Below, one piece after another: positions 1,387-47,360 of a DNA stretch of 64,000 nucleotides (its first letter is position 1; every line of letters begins with the position of its first letter). The position numbers and the translations under genes are program-made. Under the pieces are notes generated by a model. That model saw nothing but the letters and a program-made list of their open reading frames with translations, searched no databases and was not told the DNA's origin. The DNA comes from Takakia lepidozioides (lineage: Eukaryota > Plantae > Bryophyta), in NCBI GenBank assembly GCA_030704615.1, contig CM060734.1:57846001-57910000 (forward strand). The letters run 5' to 3'.

Positions 1387-4300
1387 TGCTTTGTGCAACC
1401 TAGTGCCCTCTCTCCATCCAATTTGCTACAAGGCGCTGTTCTACAGCTCAGTTCTACAACTCATGATCCGCCTGCCCCTGTAGTCGCCGCTACCTGTTGT
1501 CACGGTCTTAAACAAAGATTATCTTTAGAAAGCAGTCTCAATTTCTTTTCTTTCTTAAGCCTCGCGTCTCTCTCGAAGGCGCGGGCCTTCCTCGTCTACC
1601 TTGTCTTTTCCGTGCCCAGGACACCGACTCTTACGGCCCCTTCTGTATGCCTTATGGCTTTTGCAAGGTTAGCTTTCCTTGTCCTTGTTAAGTCGATGAT
1701 CAGGGCAGGTTCTATTCTATCGTCACGCGTAAAAGTACTTCACAGTCAGAGGTTTCCGGTTTGGGCCCGCCACCTTTCCAGGGAGATATTACAGTGTGCA
1801 AGTCTGGCAGACAAGTTGACACCTGACGAGATGTAGCTTTCACAACACTTCTAAGCATGGTGCTATCCAAAACAGTTGATGTAGGTAACAACTAGGTACT
1901 CTTAACAACATCTCTTCAGACTCTTGAAGACTACGAGTGCAGTTTTACAATTGAAATTTGCCAGAGATCTCATGTCTCTAGTTTCTACCAGCATGGCAAA
2001 CCCATCCATGTTGCAGATCCTTTCAAAGCAGCAACAAGTTTCGTCAGCTTGGAATTGTAAATTCATTCTACTCCGAGAACTGAAACTACAAGATTCCTTA
2101 GCCGAGATTGTGCCCTTATTGGTGAGTAACTTCAACTTATCGAACTTAATTTATCAAATGTGAAACTTGAAGAGAGGAATGGAGCAGAAGTCAGCCGGGA
2201 TGTTGGGGGACCATTGTATTGTTCTGTACCATTACTTAGACAAAATTTAACCTCCAGCACTTCAGAATGCAGAATGGTCCATATGTACTCCATACACATC
2301 TCCGGTTGGGCCAAGACAGAGGTGTCTTCACAGAAGTAGACATACGATGAATCCCCCAGAACTGTGGAGGTTTCAACTGAGGTGGGCCACACTCTCATAC
2401 TCTACAAGACTACAATGGACCCTCAGAGGAACCACCTGTCGGATAGTAACAGCACATGGGCTGCTGCTTGTGGGCCCTTGGGCCCAAGGAGGAACCTTTG
2501 CATGATAAAAATACACAGACATCCCTACACATTCTGCAAAAAGCTCATAACTTTTAAGCAGCAGGCAAACATCACTGTTCGTTCCTGCAAGCCTCAATTT
2601 TGCCCATCGCTGGATTGGGAAGTGTGCATTGAACAGAAGGCTCACTGGGCATTAAACAAACTTGAATTCTGATAAGAGGATGTATTTGGATCATTGCTGT
2701 GCGCTGGCAGGTCCACAACCTTTTCCCCAACACTCCACTGACACAGAGCAGACTCACGGAACCATCTTTTCAACGATCTTTTCAACGATATCCCAACATC
2801 TGAGGACCTCTTGTGAAGCACTGAGGGTGACAGGGATTGTGGGGGCCAGTTCCATCTGTAGCATCCGAGGTACAATAGAAATGTCAGGCTAATGATATGG
2901 CCTGCCCCAGATAGCTTCTGCTATAATATCACACATCAGCCATGAGTTGGACGAGGGAAAATGAAATTTTTCCACATGTCAAAGGGAATTTAAATTGAGG
3001 TGCTTAAGGAAATTTATGGGTTGCCCAAAATATGACTTAGTGTTCCATATAAAGTTGAAGAGAAAAAACAGGCGGGGGGCGACGAGAAATCGCTTGTAGT
3101 CGCACTAATTGGTCATTTCCATGACATCCTTTCTTTGAACCCAGTTTTTAGTTGCTCTCTGTTAACAAACCAAAAAAACCTAATTCTTTGCCCGCCTTGA
3201 ATTTAGATACGTTGTTTGTGGTGGACCGTTTTGAATTTTCATGCGAAATGTCCGTAGAAAAAAATGTATGTGATAAGAAAAAAAAGGTGACTCTTCCTAA
3301 AGGAAACGTAAATTATAGTGTCTCTTCATCCAAAGGTTACTGCCTCCCATTGGAAAGTGTACATTTGGAACCCTAGATCACCTAAGGTTATTATGCGGCT
3401 TTGTGCTCTATTGCGGTAAGTGGTATGGCGTACTCATTGGCAATGGAAGCTACAAAAGGGCTGATGTGGATGGAATAGCATATGAATATATGACATGTTT
3501 CATAGCATCTACAGCTTCGGCCCAAGGCAGTGCCCCTTCAAATATCCTAGTGTAATAGCACAAACTGAAAAATGTCTAAACTATGTACCCCAACTGATTT
3601 GCCCAGTTTGGGAAGGTCAGGCAACCCCGGACACTGTGGGAAGAGCGAATAGAGTGGGGCCGCGGGAGGCTTGGAGAGAAACGAAGTGGCTCGATGGGAG
3701 GTAGACACATGCACTCTAAGGTGGTTGGAGTGGCCAATGGGATCGCAGGTAGGAGTGTATGCAACGACTTTTTTTTTATCGCTCTCTTTCTTTATCCAAA
3801 GTGACTCTCAGTCTCCGGGAATAACGACGCATTATACTCATAGACAGTTGACATTATTAACATTTCATTGCTTTTGAATAAACCAAAACAAAAACCAAAA
3901 AAAAAAACTTGGTACAAACAGAGTTCTTTTTTCTTCTCGTATTTCCAGTCATCTCTTTGACAGATTTTTCCTTATATTTCTGGGCAACTTCCTTGGGCCC
4001 AGATTGGAAAGAATAGCCACCTTCGCTGGATATATGACTAATGGAATCCTGCTGATGGTTGATATTGTAGGGTTGGTCCTACCCTAGCCCAATATCATTC
4101 ACATATACTCATGTGTATTCCCCACTGCTAATGTAAGATCTGTTGTGCTCACGTGTCTATGTTGTTGTTTCAGATATTGTAATTTTTATTTTCTTTATTT
4201 TTGTGGAAAGTGAACAGAGCCAGCTATGAAATTGAAACAAGGCAAAAATAACCTCAAAGGCCATAAGGAGTAGTATAAGGCAAGGTCACTTCAGGACCCA

Positions 4301-6827
4301 AAGTCACAAAAGAAATAAGAGCCGTAAACTACGGAGGTCAATAAGGTGATGGCGACCAAGAAAGTGATCAAGGTCATAGCAATGCCTTTCATTTTTCAAT
4401 AATTGGGACGTTATGGCGCACGTGCGAGCTGACTGGTGGGCCCCGCGCACGGACGCCCGGCTCCCCCCACCCGACACAACCCCCCCCCCCCGCGCTGCTA
4501 CGCGCGGTCGCCCAGCTACTGCCGCAGCCCCAGCAGCCCCGCCCGCGTTCCGCCGCGCCCCCAGTCTGCCCGTGAGTCCAGTTCCCCGCAGCCTGCCGGC
4601 CAGTCCGTTGTGCCAGTCCCCGCAAGTCCACCCAACAGTCCGATGTGCCCGTCTGCTGCCCCCCAGTCTGTCAGTCCGGGCCGGCCGAAGGATCTGGATC
4701 GTCCATTCTGATAAACCCATCCGCGCCATCCATGTTTAGGGCATGGAAAATCGCAACATCCTGCCACGAACTCGCCCACTCGTTCTTGTTGTCTCGTTCT
4801 TGCGGCTCTTTGTTGTCCCATGTTGCGGAGCCGACTTTGCACACATGCGGTTGTTCTTCTTGTTTAGGGCGATTTTAATGACGATGAAGGGTGTGCCTGA
4901 ACATGAGAGGGCTGGCGGGGCTCTACAGCTACCATCATGCATATGCTTCCACTATTTTCGCCTTCGTTTTGTACTGACGTGGTTATTTTTTAGGACGATA
5001 TGTGGAAAAATTACATGCATTTACGGTTTGTGGTATGTGACCGAGTCCGAGCTCCTTCGTATGGAGCAGGAAACCATTGGTAACACGATAGCGGAAATCG
5101 CGGAAGCATATGCACGTGGGGGTGTATATACATTGCAGAATTTATGCCTACCGATGAGACTGTTCAGGGGAGGACGTCTCTGCCACCACATGTCTGGGAA
5201 CTGCGGAGAGTGTGAACGGAATAGGATCCAGTCCGAAGGTCCTCAAACATCCAGATGCACCTCCTGAATCATCATATGTCAACCACTACCGTCTCCTTGA
5301 AAATTGGACAATGGGAAAGGAGATGTAGCCTGAGAGATGTGGATTCACGTTGCTTGTGGATGTTCGAGGTCCTTACGACTGCAAATGCACGTGGATCAAC
5401 AGGCTCTTCGACTGCGTCTTTCTCAGTATTTTCTCTAAGCAGTGTGTTGTGCCATGAGTATGGGCATATGTAAGTCTGCTGGACGGATGAAATGCAACCA
5501 CGGCATGATGACGTCGCCAAGCGTGGTTCTGATGGGATTCTCGTCTTATCCCCGAAGTCTCTTCTCTCGTCAGTCTGTTGAACCGTCGGTCAACTGGAAG
5601 TCCGTTTAACTACTACCTTTTAATTATCTGCATTGCTGTGAGTCTGCTGAGCCGTCGGACTACTGGTCTGTCCGTCTCTTCTGATATCAGTCAGCTAGAC
5701 TGTCACGAAGTCGGTCTGCTGTGGCGCAAGTCTGTTTGCGCTGGGTCTGTTGAGCCGTCATTATGATCACGTGTAAATCTGTTGGACCTATTAATGCAAC
5801 GACGGCGGGAAAGGGCGCCAGTGATCTCACGCCGCGTCCGAGCTCAGACATAAAGTGCGGTTTATGGTTCAGCCTCTACTCCCGTATCACCCGGCCGCCT
5901 TGTGGATACTTTGTCTTTTGGGATATTAGTCTTTTAGAAATCAGTTTGTTGTCACACAAATTACTCTGCGCCAGTATCTTCGTCAGTCTGTTGAACCTTC
6001 CGTCTGCTGGACTGTCCGTGCAGTGGCATATGAGTCTGTTGTTGCACAAGTTTGTTTGCAATGGGTCTGTTCGGCCGTTATGTCATTAGGTGTAAGTCTG
6101 TTGGACGCAATAAATGCAGCGACGGCGGTAGGGAGGCCCAGTCACGTCGCGCCACGTCAGCCGTCTCCGCACTCACCTTAGTCTCTTCGTCAGTCTGCTT
6201 TACCTCAGTCATCAGTCTGTCCTTGCGGTGGCATATGAGTCTGTTGTCGAGGGTACTGGGTCTGCTCGGCTGTCTTTGTCATCAGGAGTAAGTCTGTTAG
6301 ACTTAATGAATGCGGCGACGGCAGACTGACGATAGTCCCACTCATCCCGTCTCTTCTTCATTCTGTTGAACGTTTCGTCTGCTGGACTGTCCGTGCAGTG
6401 GCATACGAGTCTGTCCGTGTAATGGCATACCGACAGCACGTGTGAGGGGTTTGCAACTATTTAATGCGATGGCGGCCAAAAAGGGGCGCCAGTGAAATCT
6501 CGCTACGACACTCCGTGGCATGCGTCGGCATGCAGGGTTATACATGTTCTCCACATACCGCTAGACTTCTTTCGCACTGTTTCGTTTTAGGCCCGTCCAC
6601 CTCCCATTTGTGCGAGCCCGCTTTCATTTGTGCGTGTTAGCTTTTTGAGGTGTGGACAGTCGCGTGAGCACCGAATCGTCGCAACAACCGTCGCCTCCGC
6701 AACACGCCCGGTGAGCTTTCTTCTTTGTGCTTTGGTTTCTTTCCATTCTCTTTTTTGGTCTTCTCTGCTTTCTTATTCTTAGTCTATCTGTCGCTCATTG
6801 TCGCTGCATCTCTTGTCTGATTCTGCA

Positions 6828-7467
6828 GCCATAGAGGATGTTTGTGAAAAGGGTGGAGCGGACTAGTTGCATTTCGTGCACAAGTCCAGGCTAAAGGAGC
6901 GAAGGTACTGGTACTCACCTGAGGAGTATGATGCAAAAATAGTCGAAGCATTCTTAGACCTCTGTGCAATCAAGCCTGCAGACTCCAACTGGTAGAAGGA
7001 TAAGCTCCACCATCCCTTCTGTAGTGAAATTATCAAGGACAAAGTGCAGCTAAACTGCCATTGTGTTGACACGGGTTGCAAAAACAAGCGCCACATTCCA
7101 CCTGGCTTCAAGCCGTGGCCAGTTCAAAGTTCAATGAGGGTAGTGATTGCGGCCACCGCCAGACTCGTTTAGGCTACAGTGTTGATTCACCGGGTTGGGA
7201 GGAGGTTAGGGCATTTCAGTTCATCAGCCTGAAGTGCCCCAACAGCCATTCAGCTGGGAATATGGGTTGTACGTCATGTCCTTCATCCAAGGATATTATG
7301 AATGGCTACAAACTGGGCATAGTCGAACCTCTTCTAAAAGGGCAGAGAGAGGAGTACCTTTCACGAAAACTTGGTTTACGTTCAAGTTTGCACTTGGCCA
7401 ACGGATGCAGTGTCTTAAGTACATCTTGACTGGTTTGGCCACTGCTGAGAAAGCAGTATCCTCATAG
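6828..7467 (+). pseudogene. Ulp1-like protease gene remnant of MULE family A (N- and C-terminal parts joined by deletion)
   Basis: KLHHPFCSEIIKDKVQLNCHCVD resembles KFKCPYCGEVKVDKSRLNRHIVD near 19.75 kb. VPQQPFSWEYGLYVMSFIQGYYEW resembles VPQQRSCWECGYYALCFVQFYLEW near 14.7 kb, with catalytic Cys changed to Tyr. In-frame stops. Confidence 0.7.
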
Positions 7468-8164
7468 ATATCCGTTTGGGCCCGAGATTAGAGGTGCACC
7501 ATATGATGCATTTGTCATGTAAGCATGCTTTTGAGCATTTGCAATGAAATAAAAGATGACTTTGCATACACATCCCATTGGTCGATTATGAGTGCAGTGT
7601 GGAGTACTCGCTGTAGACTTGTGACCAATTCACTACATGTTGTTAAGTGGACTTACCCCTACACAGTGAGAGCACACACAATCATTTTGTTTAACATACC
7701 AAGGGAGTCCACTGGTCAGCAAACAACCGAGAGTCAGCCGCACTGCCAGAGTACGCGAAGAGGGTATGCCTAGGCTGGTGAGCAGACATTAGGAGAGGGC
7801 AATGTTGCCAGACTGACGAGAGTCCGACAAACTGAGGAGTTGGGACCAGTCCGGCAGGCTGGCAAATGCGATTGGGAACCATGAGTCTGCACTGGTGAGC
7901 AGACTGTCAAGAGTCACCAGAGTGGTAGAGTACAGACGGATGGCATTGGCCAGTAGTCTGCCAAGTCTGGTCAGCAGAGTAAGTGAGGGTCCACCGTACT
8001 CAGAATGACCAGTCTGATGGGCAGACCGCATGAGGCTCACTGGTCAGCCGGGTGCAGGCACGTTCAGAACCAGGAGACTGGTCTGCTCAGGAGATTGTGT
8101 ACTCGCACCCTGCATACTTTTGTTTTCCTGGTGATGGATTACTTTGAGTATTTACAAGCCTATG

Positions 8165-8372
8165 ACCACAATGGTTCGAAGGCTGGCACAACAGACTGTT
8201 CGAAGACTGAGCAGAAGCCTGGTACAACAGACTGGTTCAAACGCCAGAAGACTGGTTGAGCAGACTGGTTCAGACGGTAGAAGACTGGTTGAGCATACTG
8301 GTTCAGATGCCAGAAGACTGGTTCATCAGGCTAGTCCAGACGCCAGAAGACTGGTTCAATAGACTGGTTGGC
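8165..8372 (+). repeat. Tandem array of about 30-bp units built on AGACTGGTT
   Basis: cagaagactggttgagcagactggttcagacg... repeated about 6-7 times. Confidence 0.85.
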
Positions 8373-8562
8373 AAACATGCAAGAAGTCTTGTGCACATGC
8401 AATCGTACCGCCGAAGTTTTATTTCATCGGAAGAATGATACTGTAGCATTTCCTACATTTTTTACTCTACTCTACAACTGGTCTACGGTCTGTAACCCTC
8501 TGGATTGTGGAGTATATGTGTGTTGCAGGTGTTGGGGCACCAACCCTCTTCCCTGTTTTGCG

Positions 8563-8925
8563 TAAGACTCTGGGTCGCATTTTCCATGCCTCAACGAAAT
8601 CCCGTTTCCTTTTCAGCGACATATTGTTATTGTCATTTATAGGATAGACGCTCTTTGCTGCCGCAAGACAACACTTGTTTCTCCAGGTATTTGTCGTCAC
8701 CAACAATGCGAAGTATGTCTGCAAATTCTTCGTCCATGGAGGATGATACGAGGACAGGCTCCGCATCATAGGGGAAGTCATATGTCCCAAGGCCCTCTGT
8801 TGCATTTCCCAAACCCTCTTCGTCGCCGCCACAGCTTGCATGAACCCTAAACACATTATGCAATCCTCCATGAATGGTTCCCAGCGTCGTGTCACAAGCG
8901 CGCACTATGAGTCCATCCTGCAATG
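8563..8925 (-). pseudogene. C-terminal remnant of a SWIM-type MULE transposase (family A), truncated at 8925
   Basis: LQDGLIVRACDTTLGTIHGGL and NNNMSLKRKRDFVE match LKEGLIMKLCGTKLGTIHGGL and GNNMSLARKMDFVD in ORF 12661..13467. Confidence 0.8.
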
Positions 8926-9650
8926 TAACCCTCACTCCATGTAACCCTCTGTGACCCTATGTAACCCATGTAACCCTCTGCAAACCTCTGTAACCCATGT
9001 AACCCTTTGTGACCCTCTGTAACCCTCACCACCATGTAACCCTCTGTAGCACCGCAAAGTATCACCATCACCCCTATGTAACCCTCACTCCATGTAACAC
9101 TCTGTGACCCTCTTTAACCCATGTAACCCTCTGTAACACCGCAGAGTGTCACCCTCACCCCTATGTAACCCTCACTCTATGTAACCCTCTGTGACCCTCT
9201 GTAACCCATGTAACCCTCTGTAACCCTTCTACAGGTGTAACCCTCACCACCATGTAACCCTCTGTAACATTACAGAGTGTCACCCCCACCCCTATGTAAC
9301 CCTCGCTCCGTGTAACCCTCTGTGACCCTCTGTAACACCGCAAAGTGTCACCCTCACCCCTATGTAACCCTCACTCCATGTAACCCTCTATGACCCTCTG
9401 TAACCCTCACCACGTAACCCCCCTACTCCATGTAACCCTCATCCCATGTACCCCTCTCCATATAACTCCAGTTCATTGTGTAACCCTATCATCCCTATAA
9501 CCCTCTGCACGTCAGCCCTTATAACTCCGCCTCGTGTAACCCTCATTGTGTAACTCTCATTGTAACCCCACCATGTAACCCCCGATCATGTCACTCCTAG
9601 CTTGTGTCACCCCGGATCCTTTATCCCATCGCATGTCACCCCTGTTCGTG
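8925..9650. repeat. Left subterminal minisatellite of TGTAACCC/TGTGACCC units
   Basis: Dense gtaaccctctgtgaccctctgtaaccc repeats; reverse complement of the 21.2-22.7 kb array. Confidence 0.95.
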
Positions 9651-9874
9651 TAGCCCCTTGGTGCCCGGCAAAAATTGGCGGGCTCCGAGAGGTGTCAGAT
9701 ATTTTGAATTCAAACCTAGGTTACACAATTTGGTGACATCAAAACCCACGTATAACTCCATCATCGCGCGTCATTTTCACCAGGTGCACAGACGTCGTGC
9801 GGTCCCGAGGGCTCCGCTGCGTTGCCCGTGTGTGTTCTGCAATTTGTACTGTACTGGTGGTACTGTTGCCGCTA

Positions 9875-12800
9875 ATGGCGTGTGCTACCGCGAAGGTGCT
9901 GGACGAGGAACGCAAAGCAGCATTGGAATCAAATGGTTTGAAAGACGAGGCGGGAGAACTGTCATTTGTAGCATTTGGTATGTCATTTGAAATGCATCCT
10001 ACAGCTGCCCATAAACGGGCTTTTCAATCACACAAACCTCCATTGGATACGCCAGGTTTCCCAAGGAAAAGGGAAATAGATATCCATCGAAGTAGTTGTC
10101 GTTCCATGGTCTCGCATTCCTGATTTTCTGGAGGGAGAAAGGAGTAGAGTGGATGGGAAGACCCAATTTTATGTTCAAGATCAAAGGTACCGTGAGTTGC
10201 CAAATCTGACGACACCGCGTGCAAATAGTTATCGTCAGTAGCATAAGTAAGTCACTTACGAGGGTTGTATAACATTCCCAGTCCCACTTCCTTCTGCTGG
10301 CCTAGCAAAGTCGTATATGGCGATAACCCTCCTCGCTTTGTATGATTTCTTTGCAGGTACCACTGCTGCTACGGCCCGGTAGATAGGCGCACGGACCCGC
10401 CAAATGTGAAGAAGAAAGAAAAACCGATAGCAGCCTCCGATAATCAAAAACCAGTCAAGCGAATCAGACCTAAGGCAGCGGATTTCGGAGAGTCATACAA
10501 ACGTGGGTGTACGTGTAGCTTCAAAGTTGGCCAGTGTTTTCTAGATCCAGAGTTGACAATCATCACATACTTCCAGAAACAGCATGTGGATGCAAAAGGG
10601 AAGCCATGTCATGGTTCAGCTGACCCCTCTTCCCATTTCATGCGATTCGTGCATGCCCCTCGTCTCAACCAAGATATGAAACAGTGGATCGTCGATAGTC
10701 TTCGCAATGGCCTATCTCCAGCTATGATTATGACACAACACACTCAACAACTCCAGGAAGCTTGTGCGTCTCAGCCAGGCATGGAGTGGAGTCGCGATTG
10801 TTTCTTCTTCGAGTACGACGTGAGAAACATTGCCGACAAGCTTGCGATTGAGAGTTATAAAAAACATCTAGATGATGCACAAAATGTACGTATGTGGGTC
10901 GATAGCAATCCTGAAAGCGTCTTCTTCTACCATGAAGAGACAGCGCCAGTGGCGGGTGATTTGAAGTTCGTGATTGGAATACAAACGGAGTGGCAAAAAC
11001 AGAAAATGATCGACCTGGGACACAACCGTGTGGTATCCTGCGATGCAACATTTGGGACCAATGGAAAATAAGGTATTCGTGTCACGCTTTACCTTTCATT
11101 GCATTCTGAAATGTGAGTGTCATGCAACTGTTGCCAATATTACAACACTCACCTTATTCATTTTTGTACCATTGTGACATTGAAATTCCCAATGTATACC
11201 ATGATGGTGTTCGACGAATGGCTCAACGGCATACCTGTTGCTTATATTATATCAACGAGAAACAAAACGACTGACCTGAGCCCCTGGATGAAACGTCTTT
11301 GCGACCGACTTCCTCAGAGCAAACCAGATTGGATGCCAAATGCTTTTGTTGTCGACGATGCAGACGCATAAATCAATGCTATCAGGTACACGGCTAGAAG
11401 TTACAATGTTCTGAGTCAGACAGTAATTTAAGAAACCCCTCATGCATGCACTTTACACTACAAGTTGCATGCATGAGGGGTTTCATGGATCGGGCTACAC
11501 TGCTGCTAGTTACACTGAGAATCACAGTAAGAGTTACACTGCCAGTTACACGAGGGGTGCATTGCTGCTTGTAATACTTGGAGTTACACTATCAGTTACT
11601 CGAGGGGTTACATGGATTGGGTTGCAGTGCTGTCTGTTACACTGAGGGTTACACTATCAGTTAGACAGATGCTTACACTGCCTTGAGTTGGACGGAGGGT
11701 TACACTGCTGTGAGTTAGACCGAGGGTTACACTACCATGAGGTAGACATAGGGTTACACTGCGAGTTACACTGCGTGTCATGTGCAGTCTTGCATGGATT
11801 AGGTTACATTGCTATAGCCTGTGAGTTACACTGGGAGCATTGCAGAGGGTTATATGGGTTGGGTTGCTCTCAGAGTTACACGGTGTAACATGGATTGCGT
11901 TACAGCGCTGCGAGGGGTTATATGCATTGGGTTACACTGCTGTGAGTTTCACTGATAGTTACATGGCCAGATGCACGAGGGGTTACATGAGTCACACTAC
12001 TAAGAGTGACACTGCGAAGAGTTACACTGCTAAGAGTTCATCTGATAAGAGTTACATTGCCAAGAGTTACACTGCGAGGAGTAACACTTCGAAGAGTTAC
12101 ACAGCGAAGAGTTACACTGATAAGAGTTACACTGATGGATTGGGTGGCATTTGATGTGTGTGCATGCAGGGAATCGTTTGGGGACGTAACGATATTTCTA
12201 TGACTTTGGCATGTTCGCCGCGCTTGTCTGAAACATTCGTGGCGTAAGATGCCCGATCCATACACTCACAATGATGTTTTGAAATAGCTCGGCGACGTAA
12301 TGTATGGCATTAACGCCTGTGTGGGAGTCACCCCAGAAGAGTGGGCGTTGGAGCGACTGGAAGATTTGCATTATTCCTATCCGCTTGCGCGTGACTTCCT
12401 ACATTACATCAGAATGGAATGGGTCCCAAAACTGAGCATGTGGATCACGGGGGCTCGTAATATTCCCCATGCAAGGATGAGTTTAGGAGGAAACATGCTT
12501 ACACCATTATCAATGTCTCTCTTCTGGAGGGCTTCTGGACATTACATCTCATATCTCAAAGACCCTAAGGAAGTCTAGGATGCCTTGGCCAAGATGTATG
12601 ATGACAGATCTTCTGCTATGAAGATTTTATAATGCCGCAATTGAATCTTGGCACGAAAATTTGAAGGCTCGTTTACACTCGGAAAATCAAAGGCTTGATG
12701 GCAGGAGAATTGATTGGTTGATCATTGAACTCATGGGTCCTATTCTAACCCACTATTGGTATAGAGATAACTTGAAATTGAAAGGCTTCAAAAGGAATGT

Positions 12801-13467
12801 ACGACAGGAGGAATTTATCAGCAATGTTGTTTGGACTGCGAGGGAGATCCCTGACATCAATGTTCATTTGCCCACTGTTCCTGGTCATCCGGCGATTGTG
12901 GATAGTGTTCAAACGACCGGTCGAAGCTACACAATCTATGCGCTTGCAACCACCTGGGCTTGTTGCGATTGTCCATGGGCTTTGAAGGGTAACTTGTGCA
13001 AACATCAAATCCGCGTTCTTCAATTGATGAAGCCAAATCTGAAGGAAGGGCTTATTATGAAGCTTTGTGGCACAAAGCTCGGGACCATTCATGGAGGTCT
13101 TGACATGTTGATGAAATCAGAACTTCCAGATATTGATGCAGAGGAGGAAGTTGTGAATCTAGCAGAGCCTGCGGAGTGCTCAACATCATCCCAGTGTGGT
13201 CGGCAGGAGCCGTCGGATGTTTCATCAATTGAATCTGAGATGAAGTCCCTGTCGCTTCTTGGCAATGATAGTGAAACAATGCGCAAACATCTGCTTGCCG
13301 AGCTTCGTTGTGTTCGTGGGAGGCTATCCACTTTACAAGTCAGAATTGACAAAGGTCTGTTGCACCCTCTTCAGGCAGTTCCATTCATAAAAAATGATGA
13401 TGGAAACAACATGTCCCTTGCCAGGAAAATGGATTTTGTAGACCGGTTCCAAGTAAGTGACCATTGA
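9875..13467 (+). pseudogene. MULE DDE transposase with SWIM zinc finger, multi-exon, disrupted; At1g60560/At4g13970-like
   Basis: VVPWSRIPDFLEGE, YHCCYGP, RGCTCSF, GIQTEWQ, SCDATFGTN, FPMYTMMVFD, FVVDDADA, LWHVRRA, NAAIESWH and SWIM CDCPWALKGNLCKH. Stops near 11069, 11369, 12201 and 12284. Start approximate. Confidence 0.85.
12475..12630 (+). mobile_element. About 155-bp Ty1/Copia gag-like fragment inserted in the MULE transposase
   Basis: Separates IPHA from NAAIESWH. Translates as HAYTIINVSL...YISYLKDPKEV*DALAKMYDDRSSAMKIL, which resembles Copia gag (UBN2 region). Confidence 0.6.
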
Positions 13468-14470
13468 GTCCATTGGCAATGACACTTATTTTGTGATCAC
13501 CAGGTTTAATATGAAGTACATGTCTGTTCATGGGTTGTTATTCACTTTGCCATTCCATCCACATTCAACCTATGTAACCCACTCAATGGGACACCCATGG
13601 GCCGGGATGACACAACGCAGGGTTACACCGTCTGGGGTTTCATAACGTAACATAGCTCTACTTAGTGTAACTCGCATCTGTGGTACTCCACACAGTGTAA
13701 CACAGACGAGTGTAACCCTCTGCAGTGTAACTCATTGTGGTGTAACACTAAGTGTAACCGCAATATAACTATGAACAGTGTAACCCAAGTATGTAACCCC
13801 ATAGAATATTGTTGTTAGCACTTGGTGTAACTCTAAGAATTAGTCGATGATTACAATGTGACTACAGGGTCTGGGTTAGTCTGTCGGGGTTACATGACCC
13901 TTCAATACAGAGTGGGAAGACGCTGAAGTCGAGCACCTTTAGTCGCCAATACCAACCCCTGTATGTGTAACCCCTCTATGTGCAACCCCTCTATGTGTAA
14001 CCCACCCTGCATATGTAACCCATATATGTGTAACCCCTCTATGAAACTTCAGTGCGAAAAAAAAAAAAAAAAAAAAAAAAAAACAAGTGGTGCTCTGAAG
14101 TGGCTGAAGTGTGCATAGGGTGACTCGAGGTGGGGTGACATGCCACGAAACTATATTGTTTCAGCTACATGACCCTGATATAGCCAGGAAGGCCCAACCA
14201 TGTAACCCTGAGAGGCCCATTGCATGTAATCCATAAGTGTAACCCCACGTTGTGAGACCCGGCACGGTGTAACCCATCACTTACGTGTGAACCCACAGAG
14301 TGTAAGCCCATTGCCCCAGGGCCCCAAGGTGTACCCAAGTACTTATCTATGACTCCACTTCATGTAACCCAATAAGGTGTAACCCCATGTAAGCCCATTG
14401 CATGAAACCCAAACTGTGAAGTGTTACGAACAAACCACATAGAAGCAAAAAATGCATGAAGAGACGCTAT

Positions 14471-17400
14471 TTATTTCTTTGGCCATTTGACCAAGTCTTT
14501 GTCCATCTCGTCACACAGCCAACTAATCATATGAGTACGGGAAGCTATCATGGTTGATTCGTCGAACCAACTTGCAGTAAACGCCCGCCTATGACGGGTT
14601 CGATCTTCTGTGGTTTTCACATTGAACTTCCACTCCAAGTAAAATTGCACAAAACAAAGTGCATAATAGCCGCACTCCCAACAGCTCCGTTGCTGGGGAA
14701 CACTGGCCTCAAACCATCATCCTCTCCATGACGTAACTGAAGTCATTAGATCCAGGCATGCAATCAAAGAACGCTATGGCAAAATTTCGCAAAATTCCTT
14801 CAATGAGTTTGGGTCGGGCAATGGTTTTATGGGAGTCCAAATGTACTATCTGACCTCGGCGCTCTAAAACAGCAACACTCCAGTGATCACTGCAACACAA
14901 ACAAAGCCGTAACGTCATAATAGAAAAAAAAAACTCTCCAATGAAACCCTCAGTGGTGTAACCCGGCTGTGGTATAACCCAGTAGTGTAACCGTTTGTAC
15001 TATAACTCTAAACGGTGTAACTCAGCAGTGCAACTCCAAACTAGTGCAACTCAGAACAGAGGAGTGTAACCCAACATGATCAGTCAACACTCAAATTACT
15101 TACTCGAAGACAATAGGGATGACAACCACGTCCACAAGATCTCTATTCTTTGTGAGCACCATCCCTCGGGCATCCTGAGTGTACCATTCTTGCACCAACC
15201 CGAATAGCGTCTGCATATCGTTACCATTGGTACACATGACATGCCACTGGAAAGGAGCACAAATGACAAACTCAGGTGCGATAGCCTTAAACAATTTGGC
15301 CTCCAGAAGTTTGTTGTAACCCGAGAGCAATGCATCTGTGACAGTTGCTCTTATTTTATACATCGGCTCAAAATCTGTCTCTTCCAAGTAAAACTATAAC
15401 AGGGTAGAAGCCAAGAAGGCACCGCCATAATAAAACTTCACTTCGGGCTCCCCAGGAGGGTCCGACACCATTCTGAACTTTGTCAAGTACCGTTGTTTTA
15501 GTTTGCACAACAAACCGCACATTACGAACATTACGATGCATCATACAAGAGTTATGATCAATATTTGCAATCAGAGAGGATTAAAGTACAATGAGGTACC
15601 TCGAACGCTCCCGCAAGTGCTTGGCAAGGACCTCTTGCTGCTGGACAACGTCAACCTCGGAGACCCCTGCACTTTTGCCTTTCGATTTGGTTCGTTGTTT
15701 TTTGGGTGCGACAAGAACATGTACTTCTTTGTCAGCGCTAGGGGGTTCAGCCAACCGCTTTCTTTGAGCAGGCGGCTGTTTTGACCTCCTGGGATTCTCT
15801 GCAACCCCAGGGTTGACAATGCCGCCGGTAGGGCAAATTTCTGGGCCAGAGGTGCCTTATTTTGAGTCTACTGCAAGTGCTGAAAACTGCACTCCCTCGT
15901 CTAAGACGTGCTGGGGAGGTGACTAACCAAGGCCAGAATTGTCACAGCTCACCTCCTCGGTGCTGCCCCTGTCAGTGTCACCCTTTTGTTCAGACCCATT
16001 GTCAGAGTCACGCTTCTCAGTGTCACCCTTCTCTTCGGCTACCTTCTCAGTGTCACTCTTCTCAGTGTCACCCTTCTCTTTGGCCGCCTTATCAGTGTCA
16101 CCCTTCTCATCGGGATCCTTCCCAGTGTCACCTTGCTGAGTAACAATCTTATGTGTATCACCCTTGGCAATGTCACCCTTCTCTTCGACTACCTCCTCAA
16201 TGTCACGCTTCTCAGTGTCACCCTTCTCTTCAGCTACCTTCTCAATGTCACTCTTCTCAGTGTCACCCTTCTCTTTGGCCGCCTTATCAGTGTCACACTT
16301 CGCAGTGTCACCCTTCTCATCGGGTTCCTTCCCAGTGTCACCCTGCTGAGTAACAATCTTATGTGTGTCACCCTTGGCAGTGTCACTCTTCTCAATGTCA
16401 CGATGCTCCGCAACATCCTTCTCTTCGTGACTCTCCACAGTGAAACACTTCTCAGTGTGACCCTGCTTTGTGTCACCCTTCCAACTGACAACCTCCTCGG
16501 TGACACCCTTCCCCGTGTCACCCATGTCGAAGTCATTCTTCTTTGCATCAACCTCCTCAATGTCATCCTTGATTGTGTCGCCTTTCTCCGCACTGTCACC
16601 CTCCAAGACCATGTTGACTAGCGAAAGAGCGTCATCCGTCGCGACTAGTGGCCATGGCAAAGGACTGTCACCCTCCACGACTAGTGGCAGAGGAGTGTCA
16701 TCCATGGCAGTGTTACACTCACGAACATCTGCCATGTGGGTTGGTTGTGGGGTGTCACCCCTACCAGTGTAACCCATGTCAATGTCACTCTCAACGGAAG
16801 TTGCAGTGTTCACGGGCAATGGTGTGTCACCCACGGCAATGTCCCTCACGGCAGTGTCAGCCACACCGGTATCCACAGTGTCACCCTGAGGTGCAGTGTA
16901 ACCCTCCTTCCCTGTTGCTCCTCTTTGCGCAGTGTCACCCTCAGGTGCAGTGTAACCCTCGGTTTCAGGGCCTCCTCCCCTTGCAGTGTCACCCTCAATA
17001 CTGACCACCTCCTCCAATGTGACATGTTGTTGCGCGAAATGACTTGGATCTTCGGTCTGCATCATTCGAACAGTGTCATTCTAAGAGAGGTTGACCACAT
17101 GATCCTCACAAATATTTACATTGTTGCATGGAGGGTTCAACCCAGCATCTCCAGATTCAAAGTCATACACAGACTCTAGGTCAAGCGGGTCCCCGGTTCT
17201 TCGATTGAGACCTCCAAAAGAAATGAGTGGGGCTGCGGACAAAGAGGTTTGCACTTGGGTGTTCCACCTTGATGTATCAGTATCAGAATTCACGGGCAAA
17301 TCCCGCGTCAAGTTTGCTAGGTTCACCCGTAAGTGCAGCTGGGTTGAGTACAATTCACCAACCTGCGACAAAGATACAACGACAAATTGACTTGGAATGA

Positions 17401-19943
17401 TGTCCTCGTCATGTACATTGTCGCTTTGCGGGGCGGAAATTGAATGAAGACGAGAATCAACCATCTCCTCATCATGTAACACAGAGGGCCCATCACTAGT
17501 CTGCACGCCCCCTGTATCGCATTGTGGAGGGGCCCCATACACAACTTCGTGAAGCTCACGTTGAGCCTCAAAAAGGTTTTTGAACGCATTGGCGACTTGA
17601 TTGGTCATGAGCTTGGACTCATCTGCATCGGGGAAAAGACAAACGTTTTTAGTCGTGGAACGAGGTTTTTGAAAGTGCAAGGGTTACACTATGTAAAGGT
17701 TACACTGACTAGGACAAGACAGTGGTTCGGATTACACGATGTGGGTTACACCACCCTGTTAGAGACAGTAATTTGCAATGGGTTACACTACCTGGGTTAC
17801 ACTAGTGAGATTACACAACGAGAGGGTAACAAATCTAGGGTAACACAACGAGGGTAACATTAGGGGTACACTGATTACAGGGTTACACACAGCGAGGGTT
17901 ACACTGAGTACAGGGTTCCACATAGCGAGGGTTACACTAATTACAAAATTACACACAAAGGGGTTACACGACGAGAGGGGTGACAGTGAATGGAGTAACA
18001 CTTACAGAGATACCAAGGCACTATAGACCCAAGGTCTCTCATATACTGGATGCCCAAACGCGCATTGAAGTCCATTTCTGTTGGTGATTCGCTGAAGAGG
18101 CCACAACACCAAAGCTGGATAAACGCTTCTTTCTGATGGATCGCAAAGTGATGGGCGGTGCGACGACGGCTTGTCTTGCAAAACTGTATAGCTCTGTTGA
18201 TCTTAACTGACCTGTCACCCCACTCTTCTATACTCAAACTCAATCTTAAGTCCTCGAGCTCAGAATCCAAGGTCGCAATTCCGTCACCAAGTTGTGCAAA
18301 GTACATCAGACTAAAGCCGTAATACTCATCGACCAGGTCCTTCGCCTTTGAGGCCGTAAGAGCACTTTCCAGAAGGTCAGTCGTGAACCCCAACCTGGGA
18401 TGCGTTTGGGAAACTGACCTGCCATGATTTCTTACATCATTGTGGGCCAGAATTCTCAAAGGAGTGGTGGCGGTCCAATGTGCGGTTTGGTGAGATTCTC
18501 CATTTGACTGATCAATCCTTCCGCAAAACCGCGAGTGAATTCCAACGGATCTGGAACAACCAAACCTTCGATTCCATCTACAATAATAGTGATGACAAGA
18601 GGATTTGAAGTTTTGGCATCGTCAAGGTCGGTATTGCCAACAGCTAGTTCGTCCATCGTGTCATCATCATGTGAGGCTTGGCTCTCTCGATGGACTCGTG
18701 TAAGTCTCCCACCTTTTTTCTTTTTCTGCTTTGGCATGTCAGGATGCCCAATGCTCTCCAAATACTCCTTCACCCGATTCAATTCCTCTATCATTAACGG
18801 ACCATGATCCGGCTGGGCTGTAAACGCCTTGTGGGCAACAACAACATTGTCCATATCATCGCTTCTAAGATGATGTCGAGCTCCCTGAGTAATACAGCAT
18901 GAGGGGTTACACCAGAGAAAACGGTTACAACACGATGGGTTACACATGAAAAAGGGTTACAAGGAAGGTGGGCTACACGGGGTTACACAGAGGTGGATTA
19001 CACACCATAGGGATTTTTAAAAGGGGTCCTCTGTAGGTGGGTTACACTCTAGGTTACATGCCACGGAGGGGTAACACAAAGGGTTACACGGATAGACAAC
19101 AACCCGGAATTTGAAAAACAGAGAAATGGCAGGGAATCCAACTTGATTGTTCGTCGATAGAACCCAACTTGATTTTGCAGCTGTCGCATGGACTGCGCCC
19201 TCGTCTCACGCAACAAATTCTTGGGATGCCGGCCAAAACCCCTTCTCATTGACATTCGGAAATGGGAACTGAGGAATAAGGCCATGCGGTAGCAGAAGGA
19301 TTGAGCCAGGAGCTCGCTTTTGCAAGATGAACCTTGAGCTCCGGTTTCCCCGGTTACCAATGTTGATTTTCTTTGCAATAGGGACAGGTAGAGGCGGGCT
19401 TAATCGCCGCTTGTCTCTCTCGTTAGGAATCTGCCGAACAAAAGGACCAGGGACAGAAACAGCAGGAGCACCAGAAGATGGAACCCTTGTAGCAGAAGTA
19501 GTTCGAAGAAGGTACAACAACAGGCACTTCAATAGGATCTGCAATCTCACCCAAAGCCACCCTATTTTGCAGAATCCATGCATGATATGCATCAACAGAA
19601 GAAGTTGGAACAGAATTCACCACATTTTCAACAGCCATGGCATGCTTGAGCTCCGCATTAGGAAACGGTTTTGTTTCTTTCGGTTTGGCCATACATGCGG
19701 CCGTTCCATCGACAATATGCCGATTCAATCTGCTCTTATCTACCTTTACTTCCCCACACAGTAAGGACATTTGAACTTAGGCCGGCCCTTTGCTCCCTCC
19801 ACCTTGGCCTCTCTACACCTGGTGTGGCAGTACGCGATCACTGTAGCATGCTCGTGCTCAGTGGACCAGACTCGTTCGCCATCCCTCTTCAAGTGATCAA
19901 ATGGAACAGTAGTCTCTCTAGGGAACAGATAACAATCAGCCAT
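14471..19943 (-). pseudogene. Multi-exon Ulp1-like (C48) cysteine protease gene of MULE family B, with N-terminal CxxC..H domain and acidic Gly-Asp-Thr repeat region
   Basis: Catalytic motifs VVVIPIV, HWSVAVL...VHLDS and VPQQRSCWECGYY; stop at 14471-14473. Upstream coding blocks at about 15100-15490, 15600-17680, 17990-18890 and 19200-19943, separated by motif-rich introns. Frameshifts and stops present. Joining all blocks into one gene is inferred. Confidence 0.75.
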
Positions 19944-20699
19944 GGCAAAAGGGCTGACAGAAGAGAAGAGAAGAGCAAGAGCAAGACAAGACAAGACAAG
20001 ACCAAGAGAATTCCGAAGAATGCACAGTAGGAAGCACGCACAACAAGGAGTGCATGAAGAATAGGAAAGGGCTGCGAGAAGGGAAAAACTGAACAATGAT
20101 CAAAGAACGAAGAACGAAGCTAGCTAGATGTCACCCGTAAGGCACGTCGGTTAAGCGAAAGACGATGGTTCATTAAAATCCGGCGGCTTGCAATCAATTA
20201 CATCCGCACTCACTAACACGTGTATGAGTTGCAATCCCGGGTGTCACCCGGAATAGCGGGGTGTAACCCGTAACCCTACACTTGTGAGCGCGACAAACCG
20301 GCCGTTACTTGCATGCGAGACACGTCGAGTGTAACCCTCCGTCATGTACCCACATATGATGTAACCCTTCGTCACAACCTCATGTACCCCTAATCTATGT
20401 GACTCCCGAACACAACATCCATGTAACCCTGTCATATCAAACCATTAGTATGCAACCTCCAGGTAAACATGATCAATGTAACGCCCCACCCATGTAGCCC
20501 TAGCCTATGTGGCTCCGCGAGCGCAACATCCACGTAACCCATCAAACATGAAAACCCCATCTAAACCTCCATTACTAAACCATCTACCAAGCCACCATGT
20601 ATTGCGAAAGAAAACACCGTGTAACCCCCTGTGTGTAACCATAGCACACGTGACGCAGTCATATAAACCATCAGACATGTAACCGGTTGACAGTGCTTG

Positions 20700-21130
20700 C
20701 AGAACACGTCGGATTCGATAGCGATGAGTGGGCTGCCCCGGCTGGTGTGAACAAAAGATACACGAGAGGAGAGTGAATAGGCACCCCGTCAAATGAGCAG
20801 CTGCTTGCATGGCTAGACCGAAAGAAACAAAACTGAGAAAGAAAAAAGATAGAGACAACCGTATCAATCGTAGAGAAAACCGTAGTAATAGATTTGCCGG
20901 ATCGCTGCGCGGAAAGCGTTGTCTTGCATGTTGCTGGGAGGACGATACTGAACTGAATGAACTACAAATCTTTCGCATTGATGTGTGAAGCCGCTTGGGC
21001 GCCACGGGAATTGACGAAAGCTGATGCCCCAAAGCAAAAAAACGAGCGAGCTAGGAATCTGAAAAACGGATGGAGAGAGCAAATTAGGGTTTCAGCCTCC
21101 ATTTCAACCTCCATTCGGCCGTCGGATAGT
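20700..21130 (+). pseudogene. Degenerate third gene of MULE family B, paralogous to the N-terminus of the Ulp1 gene and divergently oriented
   Basis: + strand GCPGWCEQKIHERRVNRHPVK*AAACMARPKETK versus - strand KCPYCGEVKVDKSRLNRHIVDGTAACMAKPKETK (about 19670-19780). Confidence 0.6.
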
Positions 21131-21157
21131 TTACACGTGTATGATGTACACGAGGCG

Positions 21158-22720
21158 GAGTTACAGAGGGTTACATGGAGTGAGGGTTACATAGGGGTGA
21201 GGGTGACACTCTGCGGTGCTACAGAGGGTTACATGGTGGTGAGGATTACAGAGGGTCACAGAGGGTTACATGGAGTGAGGGTTACATAGGGGTGAGCTTG
21301 ACACTTTGCGGTGCTACAGAAGGTTACATGGTGGTGAGGGTTACAGAGGGGTACATGGAGCGAGGGTTACATAGGGGTGAGGGTGACACTCTGCGGTGTT
21401 ACAGAGGGTCAAAGAGTGTTACATGGAGCAAGGGTTACATAGGGGTGAGGGTGACACTCTGCGGTGCTACAGAGGGTTACATGGTGGTGAAGGTTACACC
21501 TGGTGAGGGTTACAGAGGGTTACATGGGTTACAAAGGGTCACAAAGTTACATTGGGGTGAGGGTGACCCTCTGCAGTGCTACAGAGGGTTACATGGTGGT
21601 GAGGGTTACACCTGGTGAGGGTTACATAGGGATACATGGTGGTGAGGGTTATACCTGGTAAGAGTTATAGAGGGTCACAGGGTTACATGGTGGTGAGGGT
21701 TACACCTGGTGAGGGTTACATAGGGATACATGGTGGTGAGGGTCATACCTGGTAAGAGTTACAGAGGGTCACAGAGGGTTACATGGTGGTGAGGGTTACA
21801 GAGGGTCACAGAGGGTTACATGGAGTGAGGGTTACATAGGGGTGAGGGTGACACTCTGCTGTGCTACAGAGGGTTACATGGTGGTGAGGATTACAGAGGG
21901 TCACAGAGGGTTGCAGAGGGTTACATGGGTTACAGAGGGTCATAGAGGGTTACAAAGAGTGAGGGTTACATTGGGGTGAGGGTGACACTCTGCGGTGCTA
22001 TAAAGGGTTACATGGTGGTGAGGGTTACACCTGGTGAGGGTTACAGAGGGTCACAGAGGGTTACATGGAGTGAGGGTTACACTCTACGGTGCTACAGAGG
22101 GTTACATGGTGGTGAGGGTCACACCTGGTTACAGAGGGTCACAAAGGGTTACATGGAGTGAGGGTTACATAGGGGTGAGGGTGACACTTTGCGGTGCTAC
22201 AAACGGTTACATGGTGGTGAGGGTTACACCTGGTGAGGGTTACAGAGGGTTACATGGTTGTGAGGGTTACACCTGGTGAAGGTTACAGAGGGTCACAGAG
22301 GGTCACATGGAGTGAGGGTTACATTGGGATGATGGTGATACTCTACAATGCTATAGAGGGTTACATGGTGGTGAGGGTTACAGAGGGTCACAGAGGGTTA
22401 TATGGAGTGAGGGTGACACTCTGGGTGCTACAGAGGGTTACATGGTGGTGAGGGTTACAGAGGGTTACATGGAGTGAGGGTTACATAGGGGTACGGGTGA
22501 CACTCTGCGGTGCTACAGAGGGTTACATGGTGGTGATGGTTACACCTGGTGAGGGTTACAGAGGGTCACAGAGGGTCACAGAGGGTTACATGGGTTACAG
22601 AGGGTTGCAGAGGGTTACATGGTGGTGAGGGTTACACTCGTCGGAGTTGCAAAGGGTTACATGGGGATGAGGGTTATACCGGGGGCGGGGGTTACAGGGG
22701 CTGACGTGCAGGGGGTTACA
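21158..22720. repeat. Right subterminal minisatellite of GGGTTACA/GGGTCACA/GGGTGACA units (about 1.55 kb)
   Basis: agagggttacatggagtgagggttacataggggtgagggtgacactctgcggtgctac repeated with variation. Confidence 0.97.
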
Positions 22721-23079
22721 GGGAACTGGTGGAAGCGGCGGACTGGTGTCGCAGAACGACGATGGCGACAACGCGCCGTGGGCGACGACGCCGATGGGAT
22801 GAGAGCGGGGGTGGGGAGGGATTGACCGAGCCCAACCGGCTGCCTTTCGATGGCTGCCGGAGGCGGAGAACCGGCGGTATGGGGTTTCAGGGCTGGACCG
22901 TCCTGACGCGCTCGCATTAAGTTCTTACATTATTCCTATTATCTTCCTATAACTATAACATGACATCTAATTATACCATAACTTGCAAACACATATTGCA
23001 TAACATTAAATGATACAAATGTATGAGAAAACAGTCGACAATATGTGGGGAAGATAGAATAGTTGTGGCACTGCATAGT

Positions 23080-27290: not shown

Positions 27291-27825
27291 GAGCACTTCT
27301 ACATCAATCTTCCAGAAGAAGTTAGGCTGGCCCCTCTTCATGGTATTGTCGTTCCATGGGTACAGTTTGCATGGGTTGATGGGTTTGAGTGCACCCACTC
27401 ATCTCCCTCTCCTGAGATTTGATGCCTCGACCCATCGTCTCAAAGAGGGCCTAGGGTTTTAGAGTTGGTGAACGTTGAATTTATTGCATGGTTATGTTTA
27501 CAATCAAAAGGAGAGCCAGCAGTTTGTCAAGTTTTGCTCTGATGGATTTGTACTAGATCATAGAAGTGCTGACCTTGGAGGCCTGCAATTTTCATTGGAA
27601 GTGGAAATATGTATCTTCCACATCTTTGTGGGAGCAGCAGTGGTAATTCTCGAGCAACGGTCCTCCCACTTTATAAATGGAAAAAGCTGTTGTGTTTAAT
27701 GCTGTGCATGAGTACTGGGGGAATCTTTTCCCTTATGTTTGGAGTCTGATCTTTTGTAGCAAGATATGTATGTTCTGGTCTGGAATGGCATCAGGCTTCG
27801 AAACTGTTTATAAACCTGAATTTCC

Positions 27826-28059
27826 CCATTCAGCTCCGTGAATTAATTTTGATGAGCAATTTTTATGCAACTTCTCATAGTGACAAGGCCGATGGGCCTC
27901 GAGATAAAACACTCCCTCCCCTTGTGCCTGTTGGTTGTTCTCTCTCTCCCAAGGAGGGAGGGGAGGGGAGGGAGTGTTTTATTTCGGGGCCCATGGGCCT
28001 TGTCAACATGAGAAGTTGCATAAGAATTGCTCATCAAAATTTCACAGAACTGAATGGGC
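27826..28059. mobile_element. Foldback/MITE-like hairpin with arms of about 95 bp
   Basis: cccattcagctccgtgaa...ttttgatgagcaatttttatgcaacttctcat...aaaacactccctcccc is mirrored by ggggagggagtgtttt...atgagaagttgcataagaattgctcatcaaaatttcacagaactgaatggg. Confidence 0.8.
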
Positions 28060-28955: not shown

Positions 28956-30797
28956 GTACTCATAAGACGTTGTTTGCCGTAGCCTTGTTTGTGGCCATTG
29001 ACCCCGCGCCCAGTTTGAGCGGGAACAAAAGGGACAGAACCTACCTTTGTCAGGCGCTGACGTTGGTAGTAAGACTTACCTTCATATAGAGAATTAATCC
29101 GGGTTTTCCAGATATCCACTAGAAATCCCTTCACACAAGCATCAATCTGCTGTGTGTGATTTGCCCAAAAACTAGGCCTCAGGAGGGCCTGGGCTTTTGG
29201 CTCAGCCTCGAGACTTTCAAAGTTGGTAAACAGGGGTACAGGCACAATTCCCTTGATAGATTTGAAGAGAGCGTCTCTTTGGTGAGAGAATCCCGGACAG
29301 TGTATCAGAAAATGAATACTGTCTTCAGATTGCCCACACAACGGGCAATTGCACTCTCCCTTTCCTCTCTGCTTCTGTTTGCTGTTCAAAGGTAGGCTTC
29401 CTGCCCCGAGTTTAAATTTCAGTCTAGTGCCGAGAGTGGGTAGACCCTTGAGGTCATCCAAGATGTCCTCCCCCATGTCACTGACTGGAAACAAGTTCAG
29501 GGAAGTTTTCTGCCTAACTTCATTTTCATCAGACAATCTCATGGCAACAGACATGGCTTTGGACACTACAGCCTCTAAGTCAGATTTATCCAGCAGGGTC
29601 AAGACTTGCGGCTCCAGGTCCAGGTCCTCGAGAATCTCTTCTACTCTCTTCTGCCAGGACTTAGCCTGTTTGACAGGGCGGTCCTGTTTCCAAGATATAG
29701 AGTTGATTAACTTAGGATATCTGGTGTTGGGCATATGTTGCAGCTGACCCCACCATCTGACCTTGTTTTGGAGCATGCTGACATACACTCCTTAAGCACC
29801 CCCACTTGAATGGATTCTAGAGACTTAGCCTGGTTGGAGTTATCAACCCATATTGCAGATCCGTACTCCAAGGCAGGTCTAATAACGCGACAAAGCATGG
29901 TTTTCTTAACCTCAGAGTTGACCCCTCTGCAGTGGAAAAATTTAGTGAGCCCCAGAGCTTTGCCCTTGCCAGTTTGAACACCTTTCCGGATATGTGCATC
30001 CCAATTACAATTGGAGGAAAACTCAACGCCCAGGTAAGTGTAGGAAGGGAGGACCGGGATCTCTTGGCTACCCCACTGCCACTTAAGATCACTTCCTCCC
30101 TCTCCTCTGTCGTTGAATGCTACCACTGCACATTTGCTGACATTAGCCTCTAACCCCCAAAGATCAAAGTATCTCTTCGCGCAATCAATCAACTCCTGGA
30201 GATTGGTTGGAGTCTCCCCTATGCCTGCGAAGTCATCCGCAAACATAAGGGCTGGTATGGTGATATCACCCACCCTTAACCCAAATCCCTCACTTTCCAC
30301 ATCCTCGAGGAGTTGATTGATGAAAACATTGAAGAGCAGAGGGGAGAGAGTACATCCTTGAGCTACACCTTGGTCTATGTCAAAGAAGTTGGACTTCTGT
30401 CCGTTAACAGTGACACAGCTTTTGGTGTGAGCATACAAGTTGTGGACAACTCTCCACATCTTTCCCTTGATCCCACAAGACCACAGGCGGAACCATAGGC
30501 CATCTCTCCACACTGTGTCATAAGCCTTTTTGACATCCAGGAAAAAAACATAAGTGGGTTTCCCTTCTTTTTTCCTTCCCTGGATAATCTGGCTTAGAGT
30601 GAAGATATGATCCACACAGCCCCTGTTTCGCCGAAAGCCAGCTTGGCCTTCGTGGAAACAACCTCTAGACTCCAGATCAACCTCGAGACGAGTACTTGTA
30701 ACTCTGCAGAATGTCTTGCCAACAGCATTGAGGAGCGTGATGCCACGGTAGTTCCCCGGTTCTTCTCTGTCACCCTTCTTGTATATATTGACAATGA
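28956..30797 (-). mobile_element. 5'-truncated non-LTR retrotransposon: RT plus C-terminal CCHC knuckle, RTEX-like
   Basis: YKKGDREEPGNYRGITLL, FLDVKKAYDTVWRDGLW, QGVAQGCTLSPLLF, LMFADD, YTYLG and CPLCGQSEDSIHFLIHC. Frame breaks near 30620 and 29790. Confidence 0.9.
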
Positions 30798-31339
30798 CCC
30801 CCTGTCGCCAGCGAAAAGGGGATCATTTCAGTCTTCCAGATATCAGAGAGAGAGAGAGAGAGGGATAGGAACAGCCAAAAAGAAGGAAAGAGAAAAGATT
30901 ATGACTGGTTGCGGGAAGGTTTGCCAAGAGCACGTCGAATCTTTTGACCCCCGCTCACCAAATCATTTACCTGCCTCCACCACAATGAGATACACTAGTC
31001 AGAAAGAAGACAACAATGTTGAGAATTTATGGCCTCCAGCAGTGACATTCTAGTAGGATGCATGTCAAGGACATCAGCACTACAACTCTAGCCCTGTTCC
31101 TGGTACCCTGCAAGTTGAACAGCAGTCACAACGTTGGACAAATAGGAAAGGATAGAACAGGAGAAAGAGAGAAGAGTGTTTATGAACTTGTTCTCATCCC
31201 ACAGCCTTGTGGCCACAATCCCTGCACCCTGTTTGGACTGAGCAGAAAAAAGTGGGGTGAGGGGAACAGCAGAGGGGGCTTTCCAGTAGTGAGAGTTTTC
31301 AAAATAACTTCACCCCTTCCTCTTTTGGAGGACGTAACC

Positions 31340-38848: not shown

Positions 38849-38849
38849 G

Positions 38850-47343: not shown

Positions 47344-47360
47344 AGCAGAGGCTCGCTGCC

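Follow-up and report, generated by a model that had tools for sequence, protein, structure and literature searches.

Which protein reads a short motif that a transposable element has multiplied through its own body? The question is raised by a decayed Mutator-like element (MULE; positions 8923–22947, left end lost), called here the main element, in the 64-kb stretch of Takakia lepidozioides DNA that we analysed and refer to as the window. Exact copies of one 8-bp motif, GGGTTACA or, from the other strand, TGTAACCC, number 138 in the window, and 129 of them lie within 8923–22947, in agreement with an earlier note on this DNA, which had described the motif as filling arms, introns and spacers and had suggested a possible VANC-like system behind it. 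VANC proteins of Arabidopsis bind motifs that have multiplied in introns, in intergenic DNA and at the termini, according to the accessible part of PMC5735166. Body-wide, family-specific amplification has so far been tied to VANC, which the available text of PMC13547354 describes as dicot-specific and derived from MAIN. That this signature recurs in a MULE with two genes and no VANC points to convergent self-recognition systems, and the two-gene layout narrows the candidate binder to two proteins. Our literature search returned no such system outside flowering plants and no transposon with GGGTTACA; Sasaki 2022 (EMBO J) and Tanaka 2026 (VANC21 structure) could bear on this point.

Structure and ends of the element

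The right end is defined by a 34-bp terminus (22914–22947, minus strand) that opens with GG when read inward and is multicopy: 50 contigs of run X1 depart from the window sequence directly after 22947 and go on into flanks that are unlike one another (agreement 0.39), contigs of runs X6 and X7 likewise exit there, and 33 of the 34 letters are found again at 56685. At the latter position the terminus copy is followed by a small GGGTTACA cluster, and together they form a short remnant (56685–56960, plus strand), for which a second end was sought and not found. The motifs in the remnant cluster are of mixed orientation. Searches with the terminus gave no match at the left side of the main element and none among metagenome contigs. 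The flanks outside both termini (22948–22975 and 56660–56684) are alike, with TAATTAGA about 20 bp out and TATAGT beside the end, which possibly reflects a target preference (n = 2).

The right arm (21150–22720, plus strand) carries 55 exact motifs, all GGGTTACA on the plus strand, and the left arm (8923–9660, minus strand) carries 27, all TGTAACCC on the plus strand; the two arms match each other in inverted orientation over 209 nt at 91%. The earlier note had spoken of both arms. The right one stands, with its terminus at 22947, but the left one is truncated, and at the junction 8922/8923 it abuts the broken transposase end of a second MULE, here called U. A contig of X5 carries the U transposase on past 8922; on reading by eye, its 30 loose letters prolong the frame, and the residues they encode agree with the equivalent part of the main transposase. 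A search for a target-site duplication of 8–10 bp found the 8–9-bp flank again only inside the element, whose left end is lost. The summed contig depth in X1 was 63,000–301,000 over the arms and 3,900–12,600 over the interior; we did not rely on these sums, which do not measure copy number and include arm contigs that can be placed at more than one site.

The element has a DDE transposase with a SWIM finger, a defined terminus and dispersed copies, as MULEs do. Behind the terminus, short tandem repeats form arms in inverted orientation, the left terminus itself being lost. It is a foldback-type, ULP-carrying MULE, and the earlier identification of a MULE with a transposase and an Ulp1-like gene holds on the D-D-E/SWIM sequence, the multicopy terminus and a C48 match. 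The copy in the window is dead, with stops, frameshifts, an insertion and no left end.

The transposase gene and its relatives

The transposase pseudogene (9980–13464, plus strand; start inferred from homology) retains the D-D-E positions and a SWIM finger and contains in-frame stops. Its catalytic D (SCDAT), D (VVDDA) and E (IESWH) align with those of homologues, and the SWIM finger was matched by Pfam just below the cut-off (E 0.0013). One intron (11386–12169, plus strand) holds a motif block with 7 exact motifs and 25 with at most one mismatch, on the plus strand. An insertion of about 155 bp (12474–12630, plus strand) breaks the gene just before the catalytic E, at a point spanned by homologue residues 512 to 517; it has no Pfam match, and we take it to resemble a copia gag fragment. 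The transposase is without contig cover in runs X6 and X7, both guessed to be RNA, which says nothing on its expression; a look-up of RNA runs covering 9700–19600 likewise returned none.

The nearest retrievable relatives are the plant SWIM-type proteins P0001 (Aristolochia fimbriata) and P0002 (tblastn E 3e-40 for P0001/P0002) and 80 related loci (L001–L080), which are 27–35% identical to the main transposase over exon 2 and alignable along most of its length. All three catalytic positions are common to 34 of the 80 loci. The first position is D in 49 of the loci and H in 31. Unlike the main element, none of the 80 has a motif array (0–3 GGGTTACA each) or a match to the second gene of the element. 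These loci are probably domesticated host genes, with the main element representing their mobile lineage.

A convergent gene with an Ulp1-like end

The second gene, gene B (14468–19943, minus strand), is a pseudogene convergent with the transposase, and its five exons make up a single frame of about 1500 aa. It encodes, in order, a zinc-finger-like N-terminus, a helical middle, an acidic G-D-T repeat and an Ulp1/C48 protease end. The four introns on the minus strand (19142–18885, 18005–17623, 15599–15503 and 15103–14890) leave five exons that join in frame. The first splice is documented by a contig of X6, which links 18782 to 19267 through 226 letters corresponding to exon parts of 102 and 124. 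Since this contig differs from the window at 8 of 60 and 5 of 46 letters, it comes from a diverged relative of gene B, and it confirms the splicing of intron 1 rather than expression of the main family. Both X6 and X7 carry this same relative over 18723–19927 with identical loose ends, spliced in X6; it would be either a domesticated copy or a member of a family that is expressed.

By its sequence, the gene B C-terminus is a predicted Ulp1/C48 protease, encoded opposite to the transposase. The piece 14471–14716 was assigned by the ESM Atlas to Peptidase_C48 clusters (0.96), with PF02902 in 22 of 30 matches, and the gene B sequence shows an H-W, D-S, P-Q-Q, C pattern that we take to be that of Ulp1/C48 proteases; Pfam gave no C48 match on the split gene B pieces. 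At the other end of the protein, a C-x2-C...H...C region (19640–19943, minus strand) is the candidate DNA-binding part. It has no Pfam match, and it is homologous to the gene B N-terminus of U (score 74, against a maximum of 49 in 1000 shuffles). An inverted, decayed copy of the zinc-finger coding sequence lies at 20734–20832 (plus strand; 58% identity over 33 aa, with an in-frame stop); it is longer in other copies of the element, as seen from a loose end behind 20833. A second apparent finger, CPYC, near 19390 was rejected, being off-frame given the indels seen in other copies.

The earlier note had also spoken of CxxC-domain proteins. These resolve into the N-terminus of the Ulp1 gene, into which the zinc-finger exon splices, and the decayed inverted copy; the main element has no separate intact third gene, and the stop-containing relic at 20734–20832 is the nearest thing to one. 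Nor was the suggested VANC-type gene recovered: there are two genes only, and DUF1985, DUF287, MAIN and PMD had no Pfam match (E<=10 or E<=0.1 by piece) on the pieces scanned, which are short and broken and limit sensitivity. Protein homologue searches with gene B pieces found no relatives, and PDB sequence searches gave no match. Single-sequence models of gene B pieces reached pLDDT 40 and 52, which is unusable, and two Foldseek searches yielded nothing of use, with no match for the pLDDT 40 model. One candidate homologue, P0003, was discarded as a repetitive chance match.

Distribution and conservation of the motif

Between the arms (9661–21149) there are 47 exact sites, against a mean of 0.4 and a maximum of 4 in 300 Markov-1 simulations. 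Counted on the plus and minus strands, exact sites are 0/27 in the left arm, 7/0 in the transposase intron, 2/13 in the convergent intergenic region (13465–14467), 0/2, 8/0 and 6/0 in gene B introns 4, 2 and 1, 0/5 in the gene B 5' region, where a motif block occupies 20230–20690, and 55/0 in the right arm. Every block listed in the earlier note is present, and these counts bear out its observation that strand switches occur block by block, each block being almost single-stranded. The 41 kb downstream of the main element hold 8 exact sites, 6 of them in the cluster behind the second terminus copy. No motif cluster lies away from the terminus of the main family within the 64-kb window.

The location of the motif in introns and in non-coding DNA generally was also claimed earlier, and both statements hold in part. 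Four of the seven introns carry the motif and the three shortest (97–170 bp) are without it. The motif is amplified in non-coding blocks and the exons are nearly motif-free, but exon 3 of gene B is an exception: its coding strand has the variant GGTGACA 20 times. This variant gave rise to a coding repeat (Gly-Asp-Thr; 15926–17080, minus strand), and in the corresponding ORF all 31 GT[TG]ACA matches share one frame and encode Gly-Asp/Tyr-Thr.

No match between an internal block and an arm, or between two internal blocks, exceeds 29 nt, which indicates that the internal blocks are not captured arm pieces and were expanded separately. In all six internal blocks the motif core is conserved at 0.81–0.95, compared with 0.40–0.61 for the best flank letter (leave-one-out). 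Nearest-neighbour spacing between internal motifs falls at 14–18 bp in 42 of 103 cases (null mean 17, maximum 32 in 3000 runs), a contrast whose p-value is overstated, since units within a block are of tandem origin and not independent. The arrays thereby show the profile of clustered putative binding sites. They begin about 227 bp inside the right terminus, and apart from one in the transposase gene, the internal non-coding blocks, six in all, lie in or beside gene B.

A related element with a different motif

Element U (5470–8922) is a related MULE in the opposite orientation, internally deleted and cut at 8922. It resembles the main element in its transposase C-terminus (score 81; maximum 47 in 1000 shuffles) and in its Ulp1-like end (score 105; maximum 45 in 1000 shuffles), and its non-coding blocks (5470–6560 and 7690–8420) carry a motif of their own, CAGACTG. 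The two blocks contain 22 CAGACT, against a null mean of 2 and a maximum of 7 (500 runs). The whole of U has a single GGGTTACA, and the 14-kb main element has five CAGACT. As U has the same two-gene layout with another motif, related families appear to carry different motifs, and the family specificity claimed for the motif was borne out inside the window by this mutual exclusion, in a comparison that extends to one partial element. As far as the two sequences allow such a reading, the reciprocal exclusion is a VANDAL signature. The left end of U was sought and not located. Many X1 contigs cover U at 7500–8922. A likeness of 4398–4670 to the right end of the main element was rejected as a terminus of U, as 30 of 300 local shuffles reached its score.

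Comparison with known systems

The published systems below are cited from the accessible portions of the respective papers. VANDAL21 and VANDAL6, with their VANC proteins, also have a short motif tandemly amplified in introns, intergenic and terminal regions, in one orientation per block, with different motifs in related families and an accessory protein with tandem peptide repeats (PMC5735166). In contrast to these, the main element has no intact third gene and no DUF1985/DUF287/PMD match, bears a motif variant inside a coding exon, and has a transposase closest to a different protein set. VANDALs have absent or short TIRs (PMC6446971), whereas the main element has long inverted motif arms. 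Binding and demethylation are known for VANC and putative for the main element. Judged by the absence of a third gene and of VANC domains on the pieces scanned, the element is not a member of VANDAL/VANC, yet its organisation is VANDAL-like.

Muta1 and other type-2 foldback MULEs similarly place inverted arrays of short repeats behind a terminal sequence at both ends (PMC5499845). The main element differs from them in arms of up to 1.6 kb that start about 227 bp inside the terminus, in internal non-coding DNA that is also filled by the motif, and in a second large gene. The AtMu1 transposase and TnpA of Spm provide a further parallel, as there clustered family-specific motifs are read by an element protein, with effects confined to termini (bioRxiv 10.64898/2026.08.24.746577), whereas the motif of the main element runs through its body. 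A reverse-oriented Ulp1/C48 gene convergent with the transposase is shared with KAONASHI and other ULP-carrying MULEs, for which motif saturation goes unmentioned in the accessible text of PMC2528002. Gene B departs from theirs in its acidic repeat, which derives from the motif, and in its zinc-finger-like N-terminus; no homologue of it was retrieved.

Candidate readers of the motif

We tentatively favour the reading in which the arrays are clustered putative binding sites for a protein encoded by the element, most likely its own transposase. The transposase is preferred as binder because the densest arrays are the inverted arms, because the remnant keeps arrays and because there is no third gene; the inverted arm arrays (0/27 and 55/0) behind a real terminus, together with a remnant that has both, point the same way. 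Binding by the transposase would explain the arms, so that no extra gene would be needed. The Muta1 transposase binds its subterminal repeats, with more repeats giving more binding and excision, and needs these repeats for cleavage (PMC5499845, in part). On its own, the AtMu1c transposase binds cognate copies and termini, leaves them hypomethylated and activates them, and TnpA hypomethylates and activates through clustered family-specific motifs, according to the available text of bioRxiv 10.64898/2026.08.24.746577.

Under such a mechanism, the arm arrays would load transposase near the ends, like the subterminal repeats of foldback MULEs, and the internal arrays, which expanded on their own, would spread binding through the body to either side of both genes. 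Body-wide binding might let the element stay transcribed or under-methylated. From one family to the next, motif and binder would change in step, with the result that each family would address only its own copies, and the adjoining families with different motifs offer ready material for swaps. Several observations argue against a transposase binder. The AtMu1 transposase and TnpA act only at termini (bioRxiv 10.64898/2026.08.24.746577, in part), and the body-wide arrays known from VANDAL are bound by an accessory protein (PMC5735166, in part). The Muta1 arrays lie directly behind the terminus, in contrast to the 227-bp offset seen here. The bias of internal blocks towards gene B, the restriction of the sister comparison to one partial element and the overstated spacing p-value also weigh against it.

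The main rival, which we consider doubtful, is the gene B protein or its now decayed duplicate, acting as an independently evolved VANC analogue that may bring a deSUMOylase to the chromatin of the element. It owes this place to the crowding of internal arrays in and around gene B and to the fact that every body-wide array known so far comes with an accessory binder. The zinc-finger region is retained in U and duplicated head-to-head across the 5' motif block, and a diverged gene B relative is apparently spliced in X6. Searches of gene B for DNA binding gave no domain match or homologue (no Pfam match, blank protein searches, unusable models), and a single small zinc finger offers little to account for recognition of 8 bp. 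Body-wide non-coding arrays fit the VANDAL pattern and the tandem peptide repeats of gene B recall VANC proteins, but in VANDAL21 VANC without VANA and VANB is enough for demethylation (PMC5735166, accessible part). A narrower version, which we rate as unlikely, has the zinc-finger N-terminus reading the family motif and delivering the deSUMOylase to the chromatin of the element, with motif and finger co-diverging between families, as a sequence-specific anti-silencing system that arose independently in a MULE lineage unrelated to VANDAL; if it were true, the long-unexplained ULP genes of transposons would gain a function.

Neutral slippage appears distinctly unlikely. Under it, a unit of about 15 bp in the ancestor would have multiplied through tandem duplications and template switches wherever this did no harm, and only the arms, or nothing, would be functional. 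Every block is tandem-derived, a common 15-bp unit would produce the spacing peak, and the variant in a low-complexity coding exon and the three short introns without motif would fit. The core, however, is far better kept than the adjoining flanks in every block, blocks are unrelated outside the core, the other exons are nearly motif-free, and U has the same placement with another motif. Moreover, gene B intron 1 rises from 6 to 8 exact motifs when it is given the letters of other copies (at least 17 differences). Least probable is the recruitment of a DNA-binding protein of the host, such as a transcription factor or one that recognises telomere repeats, to enhancers or insulators amplified by the element. 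In its favour, motif clusters occur in introns, promoters and 3' regions, GGGTTA within the motif is presumably a telomere-type hexamer, and the exact 8-mer is found in the literature mainly from fission-yeast telomeres. Against it, the non-coding blocks of U use another motif, the strict inversion of the two arms fits end recognition, and clusters in the window stay with the terminus of the main family.

Other features in the window

Downstream of the main element, a palindromic sequence of 234 bp (27825–28058; 80% self-complementary) is probably a MITE. Inverted repeats of about 150 bp (88%) surround a minus-strand reverse-transcriptase-like sequence, judged by eye, at 29014–31485; tandem arrays with periods of 90, 77 and 160 bp occupy 35700–38850, and broken CACTA-like transposase frames, recognised from translations, lie at 42000–45100. 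A Gypsy-type retrotransposon (46000–54130), surrounded by land-plant-like genes, has a pol region in which Pfam recognises a C5 DNA-methyltransferase domain (E 9.8e-10) along with a PHD finger (E 1.9e-11). Methyltransferase-carrying Gypsy-type elements have been reported from the charophyte Klebsormidium, according to the accessible part of PMC5890265.
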